NCBI GenBank assembly: GCA_944362965.1
Contig: CALVTR010000002.1
Span: forward strand, 80,145-144,144
Direction of reading: 5' to 3'
From: an uncultured Clostridia bacterium
GTDB taxonomy: Bacteria; Bacillota; Clostridia; Christensenellales; UBA1242
Length of the DNA: 64,000 nt
Under the pieces are notes generated by a model. The model saw only the letters and a list, made by a program, of their open reading frames with translations. It made no database searches and had not been told where the DNA came from. Below are positions 791-63,867 of this stretch, in pieces; position 1 is the stretch's first letter; the number at the start of each line of letters is the position of its first letter. A program made the position numbers and the translations under genes.

Positions 791-818
791 AGTATACCCC
801 CCCCGCAACCCACGTCAA
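791..818 (-). promoter_or_regulatory. Putative sigma-A type promoter with a G8 tract in the spacer (copy 1)
   Basis: Minus strand reads TTGACG-tgggttgc-GGGGGGGG-TATACT with an AT-rich upstream block. The same roughly 55-nt block recurs at 62962..63020, upstream of the paralogous gene, with G7 and TATAAT. Confidence 0.5.
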
Positions 819-7716: not shown

Positions 7717-7816
7717 TTGATGTTTTGTAGAAATTTAGTCACATTTTAGGCACAAAATTTTTTAATTTTTGTTATATTATTAGTTGCAAAAATTTTTGTA
7801 TTTCTTTGTAGGTGTT

Positions 7817-7905
7817 TTCGGGCAAGGAAGCGCGAGCGTGAGCGAGCAAATTGCGAAGCAATTTATAAAATTTTAAGAATTAAAATTTTGGCTTCCTTGC
7901 CCGAA
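7817..7905. repeat. Three-hairpin junction element E4 (first arm degenerate)
   Basis: Closing stem ttcgggcaaggaagc/gcttccttgcccgaa. Hairpins are aaattgc-gaa-gcaattt and aaaattttaa-gaa-ttaaaatttt. The first arm is replaced by non-palindromic gcgagcgtgagcgagc, which resembles the GC-rich repeat family. Confidence 0.55.
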
Positions 7906-7954
7906 CCGCTTGCTTTTGTCGAATTTTATGCTATAATCATTAAGTGAGGTTTTT

Positions 7955-12021: not shown

Positions 12022-12395
12022 CAAAGCTGCCGCAAGGTAGAATGTCTTGCGGCGTCGGAGCGTATATAATCGGAGCAGAGCGACACCGCATATTGCCCGT
12101 GTGAGCCTCAGCGAACGTGGGCAGCGGAGCGTGCGAACGGAGTGAGCGTGCGAAGCCAAAAGCGGAGCGGAACGAAGTGAAAGCGGAGCGGAAAGCGGAA
12201 TTGCAGCTGCGTCGTAAGTGCAGCTGCGATGGAGCGCGAAAGCGAGCATAAGCGGTGCGTCAAGGGGTGCACCGCTTGTGCGAGCGGAGCAAGTTGCGAG
12301 CGTGGCGAAGCCGTGCGAGCAAAAAGCGAACGCAGTGAGCAAGCGATGCGAGCGTATGAGCCTTGCGAATGAGCGAGCGGAGCGGAGCGAGTTGA
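12022..12395. repeat. GC-rich structured repeat, copy A (longest)
   Basis: A GC-rich island (clearly above 60% by eye) in an AT-rich genome. Positions 12081..12320 align with 17074..17279. It contains the 13-bp hairpin gcataagcggtgc-N9-gcaccgcttgtgc and many GAGCG/GCGAGC words. Confidence 0.7.
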
Positions 12396-16925: not shown

Positions 16926-17064
16926 TTTTGCTAAAAAATTACTGCAATAAGCATATAATTTATTTTATTATAAAAGTTGAAAATCAAATTGTCAACACTT
17001 ATTTGAAATTTTATAAAAATATTTAAAAAAGGTCAATGTATTGCAATTTAATTTTATAAATTGG

Positions 17065-17330
17065 AACGAAAGTGACACCGCATGTTGCCCGTGTGAGCTA
17101 TAGCGAACGTGGGCACGCGGAGCGTGCGAGCAAAGCGAGCGTGCGGAGCGAAGAGCGGAATTGCAGCGTCACGTGAAGTGGTGCTGCGATGGAGCATAAA
17201 AGCGAGCATAAGCGGTGCGTCAGGGGTGCACCGCTTATGCGAGCGGAGCAAGTTGCGAGCGTGGCGAAGCCGTGCGAGCGGAGCGGAAAGTAAGAGAATG
17301 AACCTAGCGAGTGTGTGAGCGGATAAGAAG
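17065..17330. repeat. GC-rich structured repeat, copy B
   Basis: Aligns with copy A. It shares gacaccgcatgttgcccgtgtgagc and the perfect 13-bp hairpin gcataagcggtgc-gtcaggggt-gcaccgcttatgc, followed by gagcggagcaagttgcgagcgtggcgaagccgtgcgagc. Confidence 0.7.
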
Positions 17331-17486: not shown

Positions 17487-17663
17487 ACGAAGAGATGAGC
17501 GAGCATAAGCGGTGCGTCAGGGGTGCACCGCTTATGCGAGCGGAGCAAGCTGCGAGCGTGATCGTAGGTCGTGCGAGCGGAGCGAAGCAGGAAAACAAAA
17601 TTAAAAAACAAAATAAAAAATGTGTAAATAAAGCTTTTACGCCGTGCGAGAAGGAAAGCACGT
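17487..17663. repeat. GC-rich structured repeat, copy C (partial)
   Basis: Repeats the hairpin core gagcgagcataagcggtgcgtcaggggtgcaccgcttatgcgagcggagcaag. A further fragment, acgccgtgcgag, lies at about 17640. Confidence 0.6.
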
Positions 17664-20520: not shown

Positions 20521-20630
20521 ACTGTTTTGATAATTTCTTGTGTTTTAATAATTTTTTTAAAACAATATAAGAAAAACTTGAACACTTAAATAAAGTTTAT
20601 TCAGGGAGACGCGGTTTGCGTGAGACAATT

Positions 20631-20722
20631 ACGGCAAGAAAAAGCGGCACATTTTTTGTGCCGCCGCAAAAACTCTTGTTTTTGCCTGCTTTTAACAAGT
20701 TGAAAGCAGATTTTCTTGCCGT
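20631..20722. repeat. Three-hairpin junction element E6
   Basis: Closing stem acggcaagaaaa/ttttcttgccgt. Hairpins are gcggcac-atttttt-gtgccgc, gcaaaaac-tctt-gtttttgc and ctgcttt-taacaagttg-aaagcag. Confidence 0.7.
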
Positions 20723-20764
20723 ATTTAGATTAATAACCTATAAAAATTAGTTTTTCATCATCAA

Positions 20765-25552: not shown

Positions 25553-25692
25553 GGGGTTTGCGTGAGAGAAGAGCCACGCGGAAACGCACGCCTGACAAGG
25601 CGTGCAAGGGCTTTTTGAGAGAAAAGCCCTAAATTTTGAAAACTCGTTTTTCAAAATTTGTTTCCGCGTGCCCTTTTTCTCACGCACACCCC
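25553..25692. repeat. Three-hairpin junction element E7 (double closing stem)
   Basis: Nested stems ggggtttgcgtgaga/tctcacgcacacccc and ccacgcggaaac/gtttccgcgtg. Hairpins are gcacgcc-tgacaa-ggcgtgc, agggctttt-tgagag-aaaagccct and aaattttgaaaa-ctcg-tttttcaaaattt. Confidence 0.7.
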
Positions 25693-29684: not shown

Positions 29685-29779
29685 GGCGGGCGAAAGTTGC
29701 TCGCTCGCAGAGCGAGCCCAAGAAAGCAAAAGCTTTCTTGAAAAATTTTTAGGCTTAAAAATTTTTACTTTCGCCTGCC
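29685..29779. repeat. Three-hairpin junction element E8
   Basis: Closing stem ggcgggcgaaag/ctttcgcctgcc. Hairpins are gctcgctc-gca-gagcgagc, agaaagc-aaaa-gctttct and aaaaattttta-ggc-ttaaaaattttt. Confidence 0.7.
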
Positions 29780-35103: not shown

Positions 35104-35198
35104 ATAGTGCCCTTTTGGGCTTTTATTTAAGTTATATTATATTACTTTTTTTATTTTATTGCAACTTTTTTATTTTATTTTTTTACCGCATGAGAAAA

Positions 35199-35293
35199 GT
35201 GGCGGAAGAGCCGCAAGCATTTAGCTTGCAATAAAAAGCGAATGCTTTTTATTTAATTTTCAAAAAGAATTTGAAAATTTGCTCTTCCGCCAC
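35199..35293. repeat. Three-hairpin junction element E9 (cleanest example)
   Basis: Perfect 13-bp closing stem gtggcggaagagc/gctcttccgccac. Hairpins are gcaagc-attta-gcttgc, aaaaagc-gaat-gcttttt and ttttcaaa-aagaa-tttgaaaa. Confidence 0.75.
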
Positions 35294-35418
35294 TCCTATT
35301 TCACACTCGTTTCACTTTTCTAACGCGTCACACTCTTACGTTATCAACAATTTTTGTTCACCATTTACAATATACTCCCGCCCGCTCAAATTTTATAGTA
35401 AACATAATTTTTCAACGA

Positions 35419-44159: not shown

Positions 44160-44316
44160 CTTCCGCCTCCGCTTTAATGATGCTTCCTTTTATTTTTATT
44201 CATTTATAAATTTTTATGTTTATTGTGTAAAAAATTTATAAATATATTTTTGTAAATTTATTATAACAAAAAATAAAGCAAAAGCAAACCTTTTATAGAT
44301 TTTTTTATTTTTAATT

Positions 44317-44431
44317 TTTGCGGAAGAGAAAGCCGCGAGATTGCATGAGCGGCTTTGAAACGCAAGGGCTTTCTGCGAAAGAACTTGCGTTTGCTTCACA
44401 AACTTTGTTTTGTGAAGCGCTCTTCCGCAAA
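44317..44431. repeat. Three-hairpin junction element E10
   Basis: Closing stem tttgcggaagag/ctcttccgcaaa. Hairpins are aaagccgc-N12-gcggcttt, aaacgcaag-N17-cttgcgttt and cttcacaaaac-ttt-gttttgtgaag. Confidence 0.7.
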
Positions 44432-44570
44432 ATCGAATAAAAACAAAAATCACCTTTGAATTATAAAAAAATACTATATTTTTCTTAAATTTTCTAAAAA
44501 AACAAGAAAACACCTTATTTTTACTAAAAAAATGCAAATATTTTGTCAAAATACTTGCATTTTTATTAAA

Positions 44571-44939
44571 TTATTTTTCATTCAATTTACAAAACATTTG
44601 AACATATGATATCGCCATAACAAAGATGTTGTAGTTTAGATAAATTAGGTCCTTGCTTGTTTTCATTGATAGCGAGTCATCTTCAAGAGAAATATTAAAC
44701 TTGCTAAGATGTTTTGTTAAAATTGCAATATCGCTTTCATTAAGGTTTATATTCTCAAGAGTATAGCCAAAGTCAACAAAATATACGTTCTCTCCAACTT
44801 CTGTTAAGAAAACTGGAAGCTGGTCAAAGGAGTCGATGAGAACTAGGTCTGATTTGACAAAATATCTACCCACGCCTTGTTTTTCAAGTTTTTCTTTTCC
44901 AAGCTGTTTTGCAAGGTTTTCTACATATTCTTCTATCAT
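44571..44939 (-). CDS. Hypothetical small acidic protein, second gene of an unknown two-gene operon
   Basis: 122-aa ORF whose ATG overlaps the stop of the upstream 491-aa ORF (ATGA). Confidence 0.55.
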   Translation of the reverse strand: MIEEYVENLAKQLGKEKLEKQGVGRYFVKSDLVLIDSFDQLPVFLTEVGENVYFVDFGYTLENINLNESDIAILTKHLSKFNISLEDDSLSMKTSKDLIYLNYNIFVMAISYVQMFCKLNEK

Positions 44940-46411
44940 TCTCCCCCCCCGATGACTATTTCGTCCGCATCTAACTTTTCATCTTTTTCTTGTGGCGGTT
45001 TCGTTTTGTCTGAAGATTTTTTGACTAAATAATCACCTTTCATCACATATTTAGGTTGACAGTTCTTTTGCATTGCCTGTTCTCTGCTGTTTGTGATAGA
45101 GTTCATAACGTCATTGGCGCACACTATTTCAAGCTGTGAAAGTGCTTCAAGCTCGCCTAAATCACTGGTGTTTATACGCTCATCATAGATAAATTGCAAA
45201 AATTTTAGAGAAGAGATAAGCCTTGCAAAACATTTGCCTGCTGCAGTTTGCTCTGGATTTAAAAGCTTGAATTTCTGGACAAGTCCTTGCAAATATTCAT
45301 GGTTATCCTTACCATTTTTATAGTCATCAACTATTGCGTTTATAGACTTTGTATAGAAAACCTTTTTATTGAACTTTGCTTCTAAAAATGGCATATTATA
45401 ATGAGCACCTTCAAAAAACTGCTGGGCAACTTTTTTCTCAGATATATTATCAAGTTCTGTAAGATAGCTTACAAGGTGTTTTACGTCAATAGCGTTGCAT
45501 CTGCCCGTCTTCCATTTGATTTGTCTATGCTCATCCCTAAACTTTTTCATACATAATAGGTTGTCATCTTCGTTTTGAAAGTGGAAGTGTGGATTGCCCG
45601 TTTCATAGCCAAAGACCCGCTCACGCTTGTCAGGACCAATATACACATTGCGGTGCGACTTATTTGAACTGTCATATCGCATATACATGTGCGTCTTTTT
45701 AGGGTCGCCTTCAAGCATAACATACATTGAAATAGAAAAGGACCTATCATAGACGCTTGGCATATAGATAAGTTTCTCTTGTTCCTGCTTTGATGGATGA
45801 AGTTTTTTATATTCCCTTAGAACTGCTGGACTAGTTGGGACGAAAATCAAGTTTGTAACTTTAGAAAAGAGCATCTTTTCATCGCTTGAGATAAAAAACT
45901 GCACATCATTTGAATTATGTATATTTCTCTTTCTAAATTTTTCTTCAGTTTGAAAGTTTATATTGTTTTTGAAGGTGTATAGTGGCATAGAATAATCATA
46001 TTGTTCAATAAAAATTGGGTATTTCTTCTTTCTTTGAATATCAAGATAATCACGCGTTTTCAATATAAAAGGTATGTATTGCCATTTTCTGTCTATAAAA
46101 CCATCTGAATCAAAACCTGTTAGCGCATCAGAGTAACCATATTTTAAAGTTGCTCCGCTATCGTCTGCTTCATCATTGTATCTTTTGATATTATCTTTTA
46201 TAGCATCTTTGACCACCCCTTTAATTATATGCGGCGGTATATGTAAATTTTCAAGTGCTGCTGTCAGCTTATACACAGCACCTAATCCACTCGTAGTCAA
46301 AAACGCTTCCACATCTCTTCTGATTTCGCCGCTATTTATCTTTCTTGTGCCGGAACGCTTTTTATGATAATATTTAATTGACCCTTTATTACGCATTTTA
46401 CTTTTATTCAT
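44936..46411 (-). CDS. Hypothetical 491-aa protein (no recognised family)
   Basis: Long uninterrupted ORF with a basic N-terminus, a central segment THMYMRYDSSNKSHRNVYIGPDKRERVFGYETGNPHFHFQNEDD and an acidic tail. Confidence 0.6.
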   Translation of the reverse strand: MNKSKMRNKGSIKYYHKKRSGTRKINSGEIRRDVEAFLTTSGLGAVYKLTAALENLHIPPHIIKGVVKDAIKDNIKRYNDEADDSGATLKYGYSDALTGFDSDGFIDRKWQYIPFILKTRDYLDIQRKKKYPIFIEQYDYSMPLYTFKNNINFQTEEKFRKRNIHNSNDVQFFISSDEKMLFSKVTNLIFVPTSPAVLREYKKLHPSKQEQEKLIYMPSVYDRSFSISMYVMLEGDPKKTHMYMRYDSSNKSHRNVYIGPDKRERVFGYETGNPHFHFQNEDDNLLCMKKFRDEHRQIKWKTGRCNAIDVKHLVSYLTELDNISEKKVAQQFFEGAHYNMPFLEAKFNKKVFYTKSINAIVDDYKNGKDNHEYLQGLVQKFKLLNPEQTAAGKCFARLISSLKFLQFIYDERINTSDLGELEALSQLEIVCANDVMNSITNSREQAMQKNCQPKYVMKGDYLVKKSSDKTKPPQEKDEKLDADEIVIGGGE

Positions 46412-52540: not shown

Positions 52541-53215
52541 ATGACAAACGACAATATTACAATGACTATGTTTGAGCTTTATTCAAAGTATCGTGATGGA
52601 GAATTAAGTTTGGAAAGAGCTTCATATTTTATTAAAAAACTTGATGACATTCGTCATGACAAGAAGATTTCAGATTTATTTGATAATAAACAAGATTTAT
52701 TTGATATTGTCAATATTCATTGCAATGAAATTGACATACTTTTTGATGCAAGTGACAATTATAAAACTACAGCTCTTGAAGAAGAAAACAAAGGAAAAGT
52801 TATATGTGACATCTTCTTTAAAAAAGAAGGAAAGAATCATCTTTTCTTAGGCAGATTTGTAAACGTTGACGCAGACACTGCCCGTGCGATTAAAAACTTT
52901 TTGAGAAATGGTATATATGCACCACATATTTTTAGCTATGATTATGACAATCAAAGATTTGATAGAGAGCGCTTCTCTAAGTTATCAAATAAAGGGCTTA
53001 TGCAATACAAAGATTACATTGATTCAAATATCGACTGCCTTACTGAAGTGACATGCATATCTGAAAGTAGTGACGCCCTACGTGATGACATCAAAAAAGG
53101 TATAGTTGAGGCTTGGAGAAGAAATATGATACAAAGTCATCTTGATTATCGACTTACCGCCTATGAAAGGGCTTGTGAAATTGAAAATGGTGATGGTGAA
53201 GACGAGAGAGAATAA
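52541..53215 (+). CDS. Paralog 1 of an uncharacterised tandem family
   Basis: 224 aa. It shares the N-terminal pattern (..ELYSKYRDGELS..YFIKKLD), a central FFKKEGKN..LG block and an acidic tail (ENGDGEDERE) with the next three ORFs. Confidence 0.65.
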   Translation: MTNDNITMTMFELYSKYRDGELSLERASYFIKKLDDIRHDKKISDLFDNKQDLFDIVNIHCNEIDILFDASDNYKTTALEEENKGKVICDIFFKKEGKNHLFLGRFVNVDADTARAIKNFLRNGIYAPHIFSYDYDNQRFDRERFSKLSNKGLMQYKDYIDSNIDCLTEVTCISESSDALRDDIKKGIVEAWRRNMIQSHLDYRLTAYERACEIENGDGEDERE

Positions 53216-54466
53216 CAAAGGAGAAATTTATGGAAATAGACAATATCAAATTTGCAATGCTTGGAATTTATGATAAGTATAAGCAAGGAAAAATCAGTCA
53301 AGAAGTGGCAGAATATTTTGTATCTCATCTTGATAGCGTGCAAAGAAAAAATGGCGTGCAAAATTTATCACAAGTCATCTATGATTATGAACATGCTGAA
53401 ATTGGTATAAGTTTTGCAACAGTCGGCAAGCCATACATCTTTGAAGAAGAAAATAGCAAACTTGTTCGTGAGCTATTCTTTATGGATCAAGGCGAAAAAT
53501 ACCCTATCTATCTTGGTGATATAATTAAGCTTAATAAAAATGTTGAAAATAGACTTGAATACTTTTTAGAGCAAGGTGTTTATTACCCAAGTGTTCAAGC
53601 TTTTCATTGGGGTGAAACCGACTTGGAAAATGACAAGCGAAGATTTAGACTATTGCCAATGGAAGAGCTAAAGAAATATAGAAAATATATAAACGACCTT
53701 ATTAATAGTCGTAGCGTTATGAAATTTGGTAAAGACTGCCCTTACCATATTGAGCAAAAGAGATTTGAAGCTGAAATGTTTACAAAATGGCAAGTATATA
53801 TGTTAAACAGACCAATGCTTTATAGAATTGATGCTTACAATCTTATTGATAGAAGCGAGGCTGAAAGAAATAAAATTGACGAAAACGGAGATGGCGAGAG
53901 AGAATAACAAAGGAGAAATTTATGGAAATAGACAATATCAAATTTGCAATGCTTGGAATTTATGATAAGTATAAGCAAGGAAAAATCAGTCAAGAAGTGG
54001 CAGAATATTTTGTATCTCATCTTGATAGCGTGCAAAGAAAAAATGGCGTGCAAAATTTATCACAAGTCATCTATGATTATGAACATGCTGAAATTGGTAT
54101 AAGTTTTGCAACAGTCGGCAAGCCATACATCTTTGAAGAAGAAAATAGCAAACTTGTTCGTGAGCTATTCTTTATGGATCAAGGCGAAAAATACCCTATC
54201 TATCTTGGTGATATAATTAAGCTTAATAAAAATGTTGAAAATAGACTTGAATACTTTTTAGAGCAAGGTGTTTATTACCCAAGTGTTCAAGCTTTTCATT
54301 GGGGTGAAACCGACTTGGAAAATGACAAGCGAAGATTTAGACTATTGCCAATGGAAGAGCTAAAGAAATATAGAAAATATATAAACGACCTTATTAATAG
54401 TCGTAGCGTTATGAAATTTGGTAAAGACTGCCCTTACCATATTGAGCAAAAGAGATTTGAAGCTGA
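53203..54466 (+). repeat. Direct tandem duplication, 692-bp period
   Basis: Positions 53203..53774 appear identical by eye to 53895..54466 (572 bp, including RBS AAAGGAGAAATTT and 181 codons). The copies diverge from 53775/54467 onward, with a short re-matching patch. Confidence 0.8.
53230..53907 (+). CDS. Paralog 2 of the tandem family
   Basis: 225 aa. The first 185 aa are identical to paralog 3. The tail reads ..FTKWQVYMLNRPMLYRIDAYNLIDRSEAERNKIDENGDGERE. Confidence 0.65.
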   Translation: MEIDNIKFAMLGIYDKYKQGKISQEVAEYFVSHLDSVQRKNGVQNLSQVIYDYEHAEIGISFATVGKPYIFEEENSKLVRELFFMDQGEKYPIYLGDIIKLNKNVENRLEYFLEQGVYYPSVQAFHWGETDLENDKRRFRLLPMEELKKYRKYINDLINSRSVMKFGKDCPYHIEQKRFEAEMFTKWQVYMLNRPMLYRIDAYNLIDRSEAERNKIDENGDGERE

Positions 54467-54599
54467 GATGGTTGAAGAATGGCAAAAATATATGATAAAA
54501 AATCAAATGGCTTATAGAATTGATGCTTACAATCTTATTGGCAGAAACGAGGCTGAAAGCGAAGAAACGAGCGAAATTGGTGATGACGAGCGAGAATAA
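53922..54599 (+). CDS. Paralog 3 of the tandem family
   Basis: 225 aa. The tail reads ..VEEWQKYMIKNQMAYRIDAYNLIGRNEAESEETSEIGDDERE. Confidence 0.65.
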   Translation: MEIDNIKFAMLGIYDKYKQGKISQEVAEYFVSHLDSVQRKNGVQNLSQVIYDYEHAEIGISFATVGKPYIFEEENSKLVRELFFMDQGEKYPIYLGDIIKLNKNVENRLEYFLEQGVYYPSVQAFHWGETDLENDKRRFRLLPMEELKKYRKYINDLINSRSVMKFGKDCPYHIEQKRFEAEMVEEWQKYMIKNQMAYRIDAYNLIGRNEAESEETSEIGDDERE

Positions 54600-61590: not shown

Positions 61591-62499
61591 TTAAATATTA
61601 CCATTTTGTAATTCAATAGTGCAATCATTTATAAGATTTCTTGTTAAGATATCACCATTTAGTTCCCAGTTTTCATCATACGACGGCACCTCAACATCAA
61701 TAACAGTTGCTCTCCAAGCACCATTACTATAACACACACCAGAACCCACGCCGTTTAACACTATAAGATAGTCATATGTAGTTGGCGTTGGTGCATAAAG
61801 CTCAATTTTATTTAAACTATTATAAGATATTGCTTGTGTTGTATTTAAGCTATTTTCTTCTAGTGCCAAGTAGAATTTTGAGCCGTTAAGGTATACTACT
61901 TCTCCATTCCCAACTGCTTGCACTTCACCATTATCCATTTTAACATAAGCAGTAGCAGAACTGCTGTTAGTAAATGTCACATTAAAGTCTTGCAATTCAG
62001 CAATATCTATTATTATATTATCAAGGTTTATACTAGTTGAGCTTGTGACCTGAACACTAATGTATATTGTGCCGGAGATACCATCGTAGGTTGCAACTTG
62101 GTCTAGTGGAACGCTATCTCCTGCTATCGTTCCGCTTACTGACAAGGTCGCATTTGACAAGCTTGACTGACTGCTTGCGTTATATGTGGTTGCGGTTGTG
62201 TTGATAACGTCAATTTCAATGGATATTGTTCCGCTATCTGAGCTTACAGTGCCAAAATCAAGCTCAAAACTTTCCCATACAAAGCCCGGTAAAAAATTAT
62301 CAATAGTTTCGCCTTCTGTTTGCCCATCAGACAGCCTTATATCTTTGATATAGAGTGTTGAATCGTCTATATTAAATTGAACGTTTCCCTTTAAATTTAT
62401 TGTAAAACTGCCCGTTGCGGCTAGCACACCAACGAGTAGCATACTTAGCACCAAGATAAATACTGAAACAACTGAAATCAATTTTACTTTAAGTGACAT
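61591..62499 (-). CDS. Secreted/cell-surface protein of unknown function (intact paralog of 1..394)
   Basis: 302 aa with signal peptide MSLKVKLISVVSVFILVLSMLLVGVLAATG. The mature part is Ser/Thr/Asn-rich and beta-rich. Confidence 0.65.
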   Translation of the reverse strand: MSLKVKLISVVSVFILVLSMLLVGVLAATGSFTINLKGNVQFNIDDSTLYIKDIRLSDGQTEGETIDNFLPGFVWESFELDFGTVSSDSGTISIEIDVINTTATTYNASSQSSLSNATLSVSGTIAGDSVPLDQVATYDGISGTIYISVQVTSSTSINLDNIIIDIAELQDFNVTFTNSSSATAYVKMDNGEVQAVGNGEVVYLNGSKFYLALEENSLNTTQAISYNSLNKIELYAPTPTTYDYLIVLNGVGSGVCYSNGAWRATVIDVEVPSYDENWELNGDILTRNLINDCTIELQNGNI

Positions 62500-62665
62500 A
62501 ATAAAAAACTCCTTTTTTATTTTTCTTTTTAGTTTGTTGAAAGATGCCTGTTTTATGCAAAATGTGACTTATTTTGCATTTTTCAGCCCTAGTTTAGCAC
62601 TTTTAATCTCTTTGTCTTAAGTGTGACGGCACTATGGCGTCACAAAATTTAAAATTTTTTATAAC

Positions 62666-62681
62666 TGTGACATTTGTCACA
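62666..62681. promoter_or_regulatory. Perfect CRP/FNR-type palindrome TGTGA-N6-TCACA in the leader
   Basis: TGTGACATTTGTCACA, read directly. It lies between the putative promoter (62962..62988) and the start codon at 62499. Confidence 0.35.
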
Positions 62682-62790
62682 CTTTAAGTATAAGAGCAAC
62701 AACTTCCCCTTTGATAAAATTTGATTAGTTTGAAAGAAATTTAGTGCGGGTTTGATATCGCTTGCCCTTAAATAAAAACTGTGCGGGTTT

Positions 62791-62921
62791 GGCTGTGAGC
62801 TTTAGCTCTGCCCAAGAAAACATGCGAATTTTTCAAATTCGCATTATGACGCAAAGGCTTTTGCGTCATCAGAAACTCTTTCGAGTTTCTGTTTTCTTGG
62901 GCAGTTGCTAAAGCCACAGCC
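62791..62921. repeat. Three-hairpin junction element E11 (31-bp closing stem)
   Basis: Closing stem ggctgtgagctttagctctgcccaagaaaac/gttttcttgggcagttgctaaagccacagcc (3 mismatches). Hairpins are atgcgaattt-ttc-aaattcgcat, atgacgcaaa-ggct-tttgcgtcat and cagaaactc-tttc-gagtttctg. Confidence 0.75.
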
Positions 62922-62961
62922 TCTGCTTTTAAGATAATATTATTATATCTTAATTTATCTT

Positions 62962-62988
62962 TATTATACCCCCCCGCAACCCACGTCA
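62962..62988 (-). promoter_or_regulatory. Putative sigma-A type promoter with a G7 tract in the spacer (copy 2)
   Basis: The minus strand reads TTGACG-tgggttgc-GGGGGGG-TATAAT. The block is shared with 791..850. Confidence 0.5.
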
Positions 62989-63082
62989 AGCAAATTTAAC
63001 AAATTTTTTAAATTTTTTTATTTTTTTTTGAAAAATATTAAAATTATATTTTTGTCCATTTATTTACATTATATAATCCTTT

Positions 63083-63275
63083 TTAGCCCTTGCGGCTCAA
63101 TATTACGACGAAATTTACAAAGTAAATTTCTAGGGGCGGAAGAGGCTTGGGAGAGAAACCAAAACCTTAGCGGTTAGGCTTGCATTGCAAGACGTGTCCG
63201 CGTATGATTACAAAAAATTTATAAAGTCTTAACATTAAAATTTTTTGTAAAAGGTTTTGGTGTCTCACCAACTTG
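63083..63275 (-). ncRNA. Candidate structured RNA, copy 2 (homolog of 50485..50727)
   Basis: Core gcggttaggcttgcattgcaagacgtgtccgcgtatga (63170..63207). The arm gggagagaaaccaaaacc pairs with ggttttggtgtctcacc. There is also the hairpin agcc-cttgc-ggct (GCAA loop on the minus strand). Confidence 0.4.
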
Positions 63276-63324
63276 CACTACTTGCATTTATAAAATAAGC
63301 AGCTTTTTATTTGCTGCTTATTTT

Positions 63325-63564: not shown

Positions 63565-63695
63565 ATTGTCCCCCTTTCAGCATTAGTATGGGCAAAAGAT
63601 AAAATATTATTCAATTAAACCCTATGAATTTATCTATGTATATTTGTGCGGGAGATAATGAAAGAACATAGATAAAGTATGTGCGGGTGAAATAG

Positions 63696-63781
63696 GCTTG
63701 CGGAAGTGCTGGCTCTTGGAGCCAGCGGAAAAGCAAAAGCTTTTCCAAAATTTTGAAGTTTCAAAATTTACTTCCGCAAGC
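63696..63781. repeat. Three-hairpin junction element E12
   Basis: Closing stem gcttgcggaagt/acttccgcaagc. Hairpins are gctggctc-ttg-gagccagc, ggaaaagc-aaaa-gcttttcc and aaattttgaa-gt-ttcaaaattt. Confidence 0.75.
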
Positions 63782-63867
63782 TTCGCAAAACAGCCTTAAA
63801 ACATTTAATCTATCGTATTTCTTAATTAAAAAAATACTACATATGAAAATGCAGTATTTTTATCTCA

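Follow-up and report, generated by a model that had tools for sequence, protein, structure and literature searches.

A homopolymeric G tract in the -35/-10 spacer of a predicted promoter common to putative adhesin-like genes of uncultured Clostridia: a candidate promoter-spacer contingency locus

In a few pathogens, namely Neisseria, Haemophilus, Treponema, and Mycoplasma, phase variation by way of promoter-spacer repeats is textbook biology. In Mycoplasma hyorhinis, each gene of the variable surface-protein family vlp reportedly carries its own homopolymer, a poly-A tract between the -35 and -10 boxes, which is said to yield a combinatorial repertoire. For porA of Neisseria meningitidis and tp0126 of Treponema pallidum, a poly-G tract lies between the two boxes, with an optimum spacing of 17 nucleotides (nt) (PMC7864442). 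A variable poly-G tract (7-11) has also been described in or next to each promoter of the T. pallidum tpr family (tprE, tprG, tprJ, tprF, tprI, and tprL), and a CRP homologue acts jointly with tract length at tprE, tprG, and tprJ (PMC7864442). In Helicobacter pylori sabA, a poly-T tract near the promoter leads to graded, not all-or-none, adhesin expression (PMC4081817), and in the Gram-positive commensal Bifidobacterium breve, replication slippage switches surface structures, as reported for its sortase-dependent pilus (PMC9187656). Here we describe a promoter, referred to as P1, whose spacer contains a G-run and which occurs twice in a stretch of 64,000 nt (the window; 34.5% GC) from an uncultured Clostridia bacterium (contig CALVTR010000002.1, positions 80,145 to 144,144), each copy standing upstream of a member of one gene family. 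Its sequence makes it a probable contingency locus of the porA/tp0126 type, a kind of control new to uncultured Clostridia as well as to this protein family; a non-exhaustive literature search found no report of poly-G promoter switches in Clostridia.

Both copies of P1 and both genes lie on the minus strand, as do all features of their upstream regions given below, and coordinates refer to the whole window. The boxes of P1 were called by consensus match and conservation alone. In copy 1 (791-818), the -35 box TTGACG (818-813) and the -10 box TATACT (796-791) are separated by a 16-nt spacer (812-797) composed of TGGGTTGC (812-805) and G8 (804-797, GGGGGGGG). In copy 2 (62963-62989), TTGACG (62989-62984) and TATAAT (62968-62963) flank a 15-nt spacer (62983-62969) composed of TGGGTTGC (62983-62976) and G7 (62975-62969, GGGGGGG). 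Re-reading of the window agreed with the initial annotation on the order TTGACG, tgggttgc, G-run, and TATACT or TATAAT with spacers of 16 and 15 nt, and on the position of the first G-run (797-804, 8 nt), but moved the second, which had been placed at 62968-62974, by one base. A stretch of 51 nt (798-848 and 62969-63019) is 100% identical between copies 1 and 2. It takes in phased A-tracts (AAAAAAATTTAAAAAATTTGTTAAATTTGC) of the same sequence in both copies, which belong to an AT-rich block 5′ of the -35 box (819-850 in copy 1, 62990-63020 in copy 2) resembling an UP element. The 21-mer TTGACGTGGGTTGCGGGGGGG occurs twice in the window, with 0 occurrences expected from 100 shuffles, and two of the three G/C runs of at least 7 nt in the window (about 0.5 expected for independent bases) are the P1 tracts. 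Copy 1 was the top promoter-like site of its region in a consensus scan (10 of 12 matches, 16-nt spacer); copy 2 was not listed because its 15-nt spacer lies outside the range of 16-18 nt covered by that scan. The distance from the -10 box to the ATG is 396 nt for copy 1 (ATG at 394) and 463 nt for copy 2 (ATG at 62499), so that the shared block first noticed some 400-460 nt 5′ of both paralogous genes is confirmed.

The two open reading frames (ORFs) are paralogues, both beginning MSLKVKLIS... Copy 2 (61591-62499) encodes 302 amino acids (aa), in which a hydrophobic helix at the N-terminus is followed by a conserved domain (about 170 aa) and a variable C-terminal part. Copy 1 (1-394) runs off the window and is frameshifted near 290. 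Relative to the orthologue L002, one of the related loci introduced below, in which the gene is intact, a 1-nt deletion plus a substitution at 278-292 (ATGCAAGGG to AT-TAAGGG) end the copy 1 ORF after 38 codons with a TAA at 280-278. The frameshift site is not in a repeat, and copy 1 is either a pseudogene or affected by a sequence error. The earlier description of two paralogous secreted-protein genes is confirmed as to the paralogy and corrected as to copy 1, whose ORF ends early.

The 302-aa product of copy 2 has 80 homologues, none of which is named. No Pfam or NCBIfam family matched the core of five members, and the window protein, P0001, P0048, and P0016 gave no exact-protein match. Throughout the family, the hydrophobic helix and the domain of about 170 aa are followed by a hypervariable C-terminal part, several paralogues are found per genome, and some members or homologues end in BspA-type leucine-rich repeats or DUF6273 domains. 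The AlphaFold model of the copy 2 product is all-beta past the N-terminal helix, with a mean predicted local distance difference test score of 66, and the best Foldseek matches were to the adhesin domain of Streptococcus pyogenes Epf (E 6e-5), but these are weak, with template modelling scores of just 0.18. Because of the helix, the all-beta model, and the Epf adhesin-domain matches, the family proteins are labelled, with modest confidence, as probable surface or secreted adhesin-like proteins. An identification as TasA or camelysin with a SipW-type signal peptide, suggested by the MSLKVKL... N-terminus, found no support, the five members having no NCBIfam or Pfam match. At 1312-1910 of one related locus (L007), what comes after P1 and a class I leader, the type found at copy 1, is no full family gene but a CA-repeat plus a gene fragment that codes for BspA-type leucine-rich repeats; this arrangement suggests a recombination remnant and cassette shuffling inside the family.

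Three sources supplied related loci: a scan of metagenomes for the block, which gave five loci of one near-identical strain (ERZ1090861, L002-L007); protein-based look-ups (L010, L011, L031-L037); and a scan of representative genomes, which gave 19 family loci in five metagenome-assembled genomes (MAGs) of uncultured Clostridia or Firmicutes. L001, with 32 nt of upstream sequence only, and L008 and L009, chance 21-mer matches in unrelated GC-rich DNA, were left out. An exact scan of the representative-genome contigs for the block itself gave no match, the species of the window not being among those genomes. The P1 design, TTGACA/G followed by 6-8 nt, a G-run, and TAnAnT, recurs upstream of 28 loci of the family, spread over at least six genomes or MAGs of uncultured Clostridia. 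Clades differ in the fixed part of the spacer (tgggttgc, cgcgttgc, aaaaatgc, aaaattc) but share the hexamers and the G-run. Where uninterrupted, the run extends from G6 to G10, and the spacers measure 15 nt at six loci, 16 nt at nine, 17 nt at seven, 18 nt at three, 19 nt at two, and 12 nt at one. P1 tracts make up 24 of the 25 G/C runs of at least 7 nt in the 220,572 bases of the window and all family loci. At least 5-7 paralogues per genome each have their own G-tract, and P1 is directed toward the family gene at every locus with downstream sequence, L007 with its gene fragment being a partial exception. The tract is interrupted at L016 (GGGAGGGGAGG), L027 (GGGGGAGG), and L033 (GGGGTGGGTGG, 17-nt spacer), and L012, the orthologue of L033, has G8 followed by CGG at this position; such interrupted paralogue tracts cannot slip and are therefore "locked". 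L028 has A7 at the position of the tract. Taken as a whole, this pattern points to P1 as a promoter of the sigma-70/sigma-A type common to a multigene family of putatively secreted or membrane-anchored, adhesin-like proteins of uncultured Clostridia.

Three other explanations of the block were tried and rejected. An inverton is contradicted by the orientation of P1, which is never inverted relative to the gene among the 28 loci; the three-hairpin module of the leader described below does occur in both orientations, but between paralogues only (copy 1 of the window and L012/L033 are reverse complements), not between orthologues. A G-quadruplex does not fit the other clades, which combine an A-rich spacer with a single G-run, and no four-run motif is conserved. 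As for a sporulation-sigma promoter, the -10 region loosely fits the consensus GGnnAnAnT, but the -35 box is a clean TTGACA/G.

Tract lengths, all of which are consensus calls of metagenome assemblies, are polymorphic between near-identical strains. The initial annotation had taken the length difference between the two paralogues of one genome as showing instability, which is an insufficient argument; the comparison of strains and MAGs that it proposed as a check was run and revealed orthologous tracts of different length on near-identical backgrounds. Copy 2 of the window has G7 where L005 has G8, and this is the sole indel in 3029 aligned columns with 35 substitutions. At the P0012-type locus, the tract is G8 in L006, G9 in L010, G7 in L011, and G7 in L036, with flanks 99.3-100% identical; L010 and L011 differ in the tract alone, their 4002 aligned columns holding 0 substitutions. 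Copy 1 and L002 both have G8. A/T runs of at least 7 nt in the same alignments almost never changed in length.

Such differences might also be read as homopolymer errors of sequencing or assembly around a tract that is stable at one true length. Consensus metagenome assemblies, from which every length was taken, are most error-prone at homopolymers; some contigs are of low coverage (about 2.8x for L037); and L010 and L011 are possibly two assemblies of the same sample, in which case, however, the length discrepancy would itself indicate mixed reads. This explanation is nevertheless improbable, as lengths from G6 to G10 come from independent assemblies made with different assemblers, interrupted variants such as GGGGTGGGTGG are substitutions and not length miscalls, A/T runs of 7-9 nt in the same contigs are almost invariant, and a 2-nt difference (G9 versus G7) on an identical 4 kilobases (kb) is an unlikely consensus error. 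The 28 loci, the 24/25 enrichment, the orthologue indels, and the interrupted tracts support the initial proposal that a promoter common to a surface-protein family has a slippage-prone G-run in its -35/-10 spacer.

Alignment of the upstream regions of both window copies revealed two conserved pieces, the distal one corresponding to P1 and a proximal one that begins about 140 nt 5′ of the ORF and extends into it; the intervening 280-330 nt or so are unrelated in sequence. The proximal piece contains a second promoter-like site, P2, located 90-110 nt before the ATG in both genes. In copy 1 (478-531), it consists of a palindrome TGACG-N9-CGTCA (531-513), a -35 box GTGACA (507-502), and a -10 box TAAAAT (483-478) with an 18-nt spacer containing TG, and a hairpin lies 3′ of it. 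In copy 2 (62591-62642), the same palindrome (62642-62624) precedes AAGACA (62618-62613) and TAAACT (62596-62591) with a 16-nt spacer, again containing TG. A perfect palindrome TGTGACAAATGTCACA (TGTGA-N6-TCACA, 62666-62681) found 5′ of P2 in copy 2, and also in L018 and L022, is CRP/FNR-like, which suggests a regulator of that family. P2 is kept in homologous loci of other species, together with palindromic operator-like sites, and it probably gives regulated expression independent of the tract.

Our preferred reading, which we consider fairly likely, is that P1 is a promoter-spacer contingency locus through which slippage tunes each paralogue independently by shifting the spacing among 15, 16, and 17 nt, with P2 adding regulated expression. 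Two features of such loci are present, since the tract lies between the -35 and -10 boxes and its length is polymorphic between close strains at the same locus. We infer promoter activity and a transcription start for P1, as well as tract-length-dependent expression and high-frequency reversible switching. Briefly, slipped-strand mispairing at replication would add or remove one G, so that the spacing would move among 15, 16, and 17 nt (G7, G8, and G9 in the species of the window) and alter the engagement of both boxes by RNA polymerase. By analogy with the known systems, 17 nt would be the strongest spacing and 15 nt a weak one. As each paralogue has its own tract, a population would become mixed, its cells varying in which of these proteins they make and how much. 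The transcript from P1 would start with a 5′ hairpin and a very stable structured leader before reaching the gene, and P2 and its palindromic operator-like sites, which in many loci, both window copies among them, stand closer to the ATG, would provide regulated expression. Within the window, copy 1 combines G8 and a 16-nt spacer with a frameshifted gene; copy 2 is intact but has a 15-nt spacing, which is presumably weak.

Several observations weigh against such a switch. Besides the assembly origin of the lengths and the possible common sample of L010 and L011, the commonest state is G8 with a 16-nt spacer and not the canonical optimum of 17 nt, and the two loci with a 19-nt spacer and the one with a 12-nt spacer, if real, would have poor or dead promoters. 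Both window genes carry P2, and three orthologues of copy 2 have P2 alone, so that the P1 tract can only modulate these two genes. The idea of an ON/OFF or rheostat switch is accordingly retained as a rheostat for the window genes, and full ON/OFF control is not, because both have P2. A related alternative keeps P1 as a real promoter but has the G-run maintained for structure or protein binding and subject to slow evolutionary drift, with expression achieved mainly through P2 and its regulators and no rapid phase variation. It draws on the conservation of P2 across species with palindromic operator-like sites, on the three samples whose copy-2 orthologues are P2-only and have a divergent XRE-type gene, and on the five P1 copies of the ERZ1090861 strain, all of which are G8. 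Slow drift is hard to reconcile with tracts that differ between strains 99.3-100% identical over kilobases, with a spacer whose 3′ half conserves nothing but the G-run, and with the many loci that lack any P2, and we regard it as rather unlikely.

Downstream of P1, both window copies are predicted to be transcribed with long structured leaders. A conserved hairpin, GATAG..CTATC in copy 1 (757-779; class I leader) and its counterpart in copy 2 (62929-62953; class II leader), is found near the predicted 5′ end; its pairing is kept in 88% of the cells compared, with weak covariation, most pairs being invariant and two changed on both sides. This is followed in copy 1 by a closed three-hairpin junction on a closing stem (644-744; "4WJ" module, -60.6 kcal/mol, z -11.3) and in copy 2 by a three-hairpin junction on a long closing stem (62795-62918; -83.1 kcal/mol, z -14.8), and clear compensatory changes separate the junction module of copy 2 from that of L006. 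The predicted P1 transcript opens with a hairpin that lies 3-5 nt from the expected start and continues as a long rod with the three-hairpin junction at its tip, after which an A-rich linker leads to the ribosome-binding site. In the whole window, only the signal recognition particle RNA, transfer-messenger RNA, and transfer RNAs scored above the Rfam gathering threshold, with no match to a leader, and in the two intergenic regions searched at E up to 5 only chance-level matches appeared, which leaves the leaders and the other structured elements without a family. Genes of abundant surface-layer proteins typically have long structured leaders and tandem promoters. The leader of P1 may likewise act as a stabilising 5′ untranslated region.

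The same features could be taken to mean that the block drives a separate structured small RNA, or is the end of a recombining or mobile intergenic cassette, and is not the promoter of the downstream gene. Consistent with this, the P1-P2 interval is unrelated in the two window copies, each having its own very stable element, P1 and its leader segment are present or absent between near-identical strains, and three-hairpin junctions occur genome-wide in every type of intergenic region. On inspection by eye, however, the stretch from the structured element to P2 or the ribosome-binding site showed nothing resembling a terminator, and the scans list only hairpins inside the junction. P1 is, moreover, the sole promoter-like site in L004, L006/L010/L011, L012/L033, L021, and L031, where the leader is continuous to a ribosome-binding site 213-244 nt or more downstream; at the short-leader loci, P1 lies 213-244 nt from the ATG with nothing else promoter-like between. 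P1 also faces the family gene wherever downstream sequence was examined, again with L007 as a partial exception. We therefore consider a small RNA or a mere cassette end very improbable and retain P1 as the probable promoter of the family gene.

A different arrangement was observed in the CALVNW and CAMLSW genomes (L015, L016, L019, L023, L024, L026, and L027), in which a perfect hairpin of 13-20 base pairs (bp), followed by a T-rich stretch, lies directly 3′ of the -10 box of P1, with pairing that reaches into the -10 box and the G-run (GGGGTAAAAT...ATTTTACCCC). This hairpin may be an upstream or overlapping terminator, an operator, a cruciform, or an accident.

Upstream of copy 2, P1 was found to be part of a segment that is swapped between samples. 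In the window, this segment comprises 610 nt (62665-63274) and holds, besides P1 and its leader, a structured element and the CRP-like palindrome. Three other samples (L034, L035, and the low-coverage contig L037) have a copy-2 orthologue that lacks P1 and is preceded instead by a 442-nt segment with a divergent gene of the HTH_3/XRE type, the flanks being 98.5-99.6% identical. P2 alone can therefore serve the gene, and P1 with its leader behaves like an add-on cassette. Over its A-tract/TTGACG half, P1 shares 86% identity with the matching half of P2, a homology that may have offered a recombination route for the swap. From this, a broader and more tentative picture can be drawn, possible though on the whole unlikely: P1, its hairpin, and the structured leader would form a portable "stochastic-expression cassette" kept identical among the paralogues of a genome by recombination, which replaces regulator-based control (the XRE gene) via the A-tract/TTGACG homology of P1 and P2. 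The lineage would thereby toggle whole genes between deterministic control (regulator and P2) and bet-hedging control (G-tract P1), and the leader junctions would be undescribed lineage-specific structured repeats.

The three-hairpin junctions of the leaders belong to a larger family of elements in the window, located at 644-744, 940-1043, 2787-2890, 7811-7911, 20626-20727, 25555-25690, 29685-29779, 35194-35298, 44310-44438, 62795-62918, and 63692-63785. These are intergenic elements of 100-150 nt in which a closing stem of 12-30 bp carries three near-perfect hairpins with almost no linker, and the eight that were folded with shuffles gave z from -6.8 to -14.8. Some 9-10 copies are distributed over 64 kb in divergent, convergent, and tandem intergenic regions in either orientation, two of them in P1 leaders. 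Close relatives (L002-L014, L018, L031, L033) have them, the more distant MAG loci do not. Their sequences differ overall, but short hairpin themes recur (AAATTTT.., AAGGC..GCCTT, AAACTC..GAGTTT), and AGCGAATG occurs 7 times versus 2 expected. In having many intergenic copies in either orientation, they are like repetitive extragenic palindromic sequences or miniature inverted-repeat transposable elements. No Rfam match and, in a non-exhaustive literature search, no description of them was found.

A second structured element (GGTGAGACACCAAAACC ... GGTTTTGGTTTCTCTCCC ... CGTCGTAA ... GAGCCGCAAGGGCT) is located 5′ of P1 at about 63100-63280 on the minus strand of the window and has no Rfam match. 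It also occurs in L017 (about 990-1300), L020 (about 1110-1480), L021 (about 1310-1400), and L032 (about 400-950), where it lies inside P1 leaders of other species. Three non-coding stretches, strongly G+A-rich on the plus strand (12060-12395, 17055-17320, and 17490-17595), reach 58-61% GC in a genome of 34% GC and show GAGCG, GCGAGCG, and GCGGA motifs (13 GAGCG versus about 1 expected) that alternate with perfect hairpins. A TATAAT-like box precedes the first two, and none has an Rfam match; they look like multi-site protein-binding (sponge-type) small RNAs.

The third G/C run of the window, a G8 at 44943-44950 on the minus strand, lies in the last codons of one ORF (44936-46411, minus strand) and is at the same time the ribosome-binding site (GGGGGGGGAGAATG) of an overlapping ORF (44571-44939, minus strand); neither ORF has a Pfam match, and the run could be a second slippage site. 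Elsewhere in the window, at 52541-54599, three tandem paralogous ORFs of about 225 aa are found, with 53195-53494 and 53887-54186 being 99% identical over 300 nt. In a related MAG, an OLE RNA (Rfam RF01071, 371 bits) occurs at 2436-3013 of L021, downstream of one family gene.

The proposed switch would matter in several ways. An entire variable surface-protein family appears to be wired with G-tracts, in a design conserved over several species-level genomes. If read data confirm this, the family proteins become candidates for host or phage interaction, the "homopolymer errors" at such sites of metagenome assemblies carry biological signal, and the two-promoter layout with its regulator swap offers a testable case of trading regulated for stochastic control.

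Compared with the described systems, P1 resembles porA, with which it shares a G homopolymer in the sigma-70-type spacer of a surface-protein promoter, the length of which sets the spacing (PMC7864442). The two differ in that porA is a single gene of a Gram-negative pathogen, whereas at least 5-7 paralogues per genome are involved in these uncultured Clostridia, and in that the Clostridia tracts are shorter (7-9) and come with a leader that is long and structured and, often, with a second promoter. Switching is established for porA and is a prediction for P1. The tpr genes and tp0126 offer a parallel in that putative surface proteins there form a multigene family, each member of which has a poly-G tract, and the role of CRP there parallels the CRP-like palindromes near P2. 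The spirochaete lineage and its protein family are unrelated, however, and most tpr tracts lie just 5′ of the transcription start and not in the spacer; length heterogeneity and reporter effects have been measured in Treponema and are predictions for P1. The vlp genes differ in having poly-A instead of poly-G and in encoding lipoproteins of a wall-less organism, and they reportedly have neither a structured leader nor a second promoter. In B. breve, the G-tract of the pilus locus is reportedly part of the coding sequence, not of a promoter spacer, and switches ON/OFF through frameshifts. The sabA tract reportedly adjoins the -35 box and acts via DNA geometry and UP-like contacts, leaving the -35/-10 spacing unchanged. 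The Clostridia loci are further marked by an unusual layout of two promoters and a structured leader, and by the swap of the cassette with a regulator gene.

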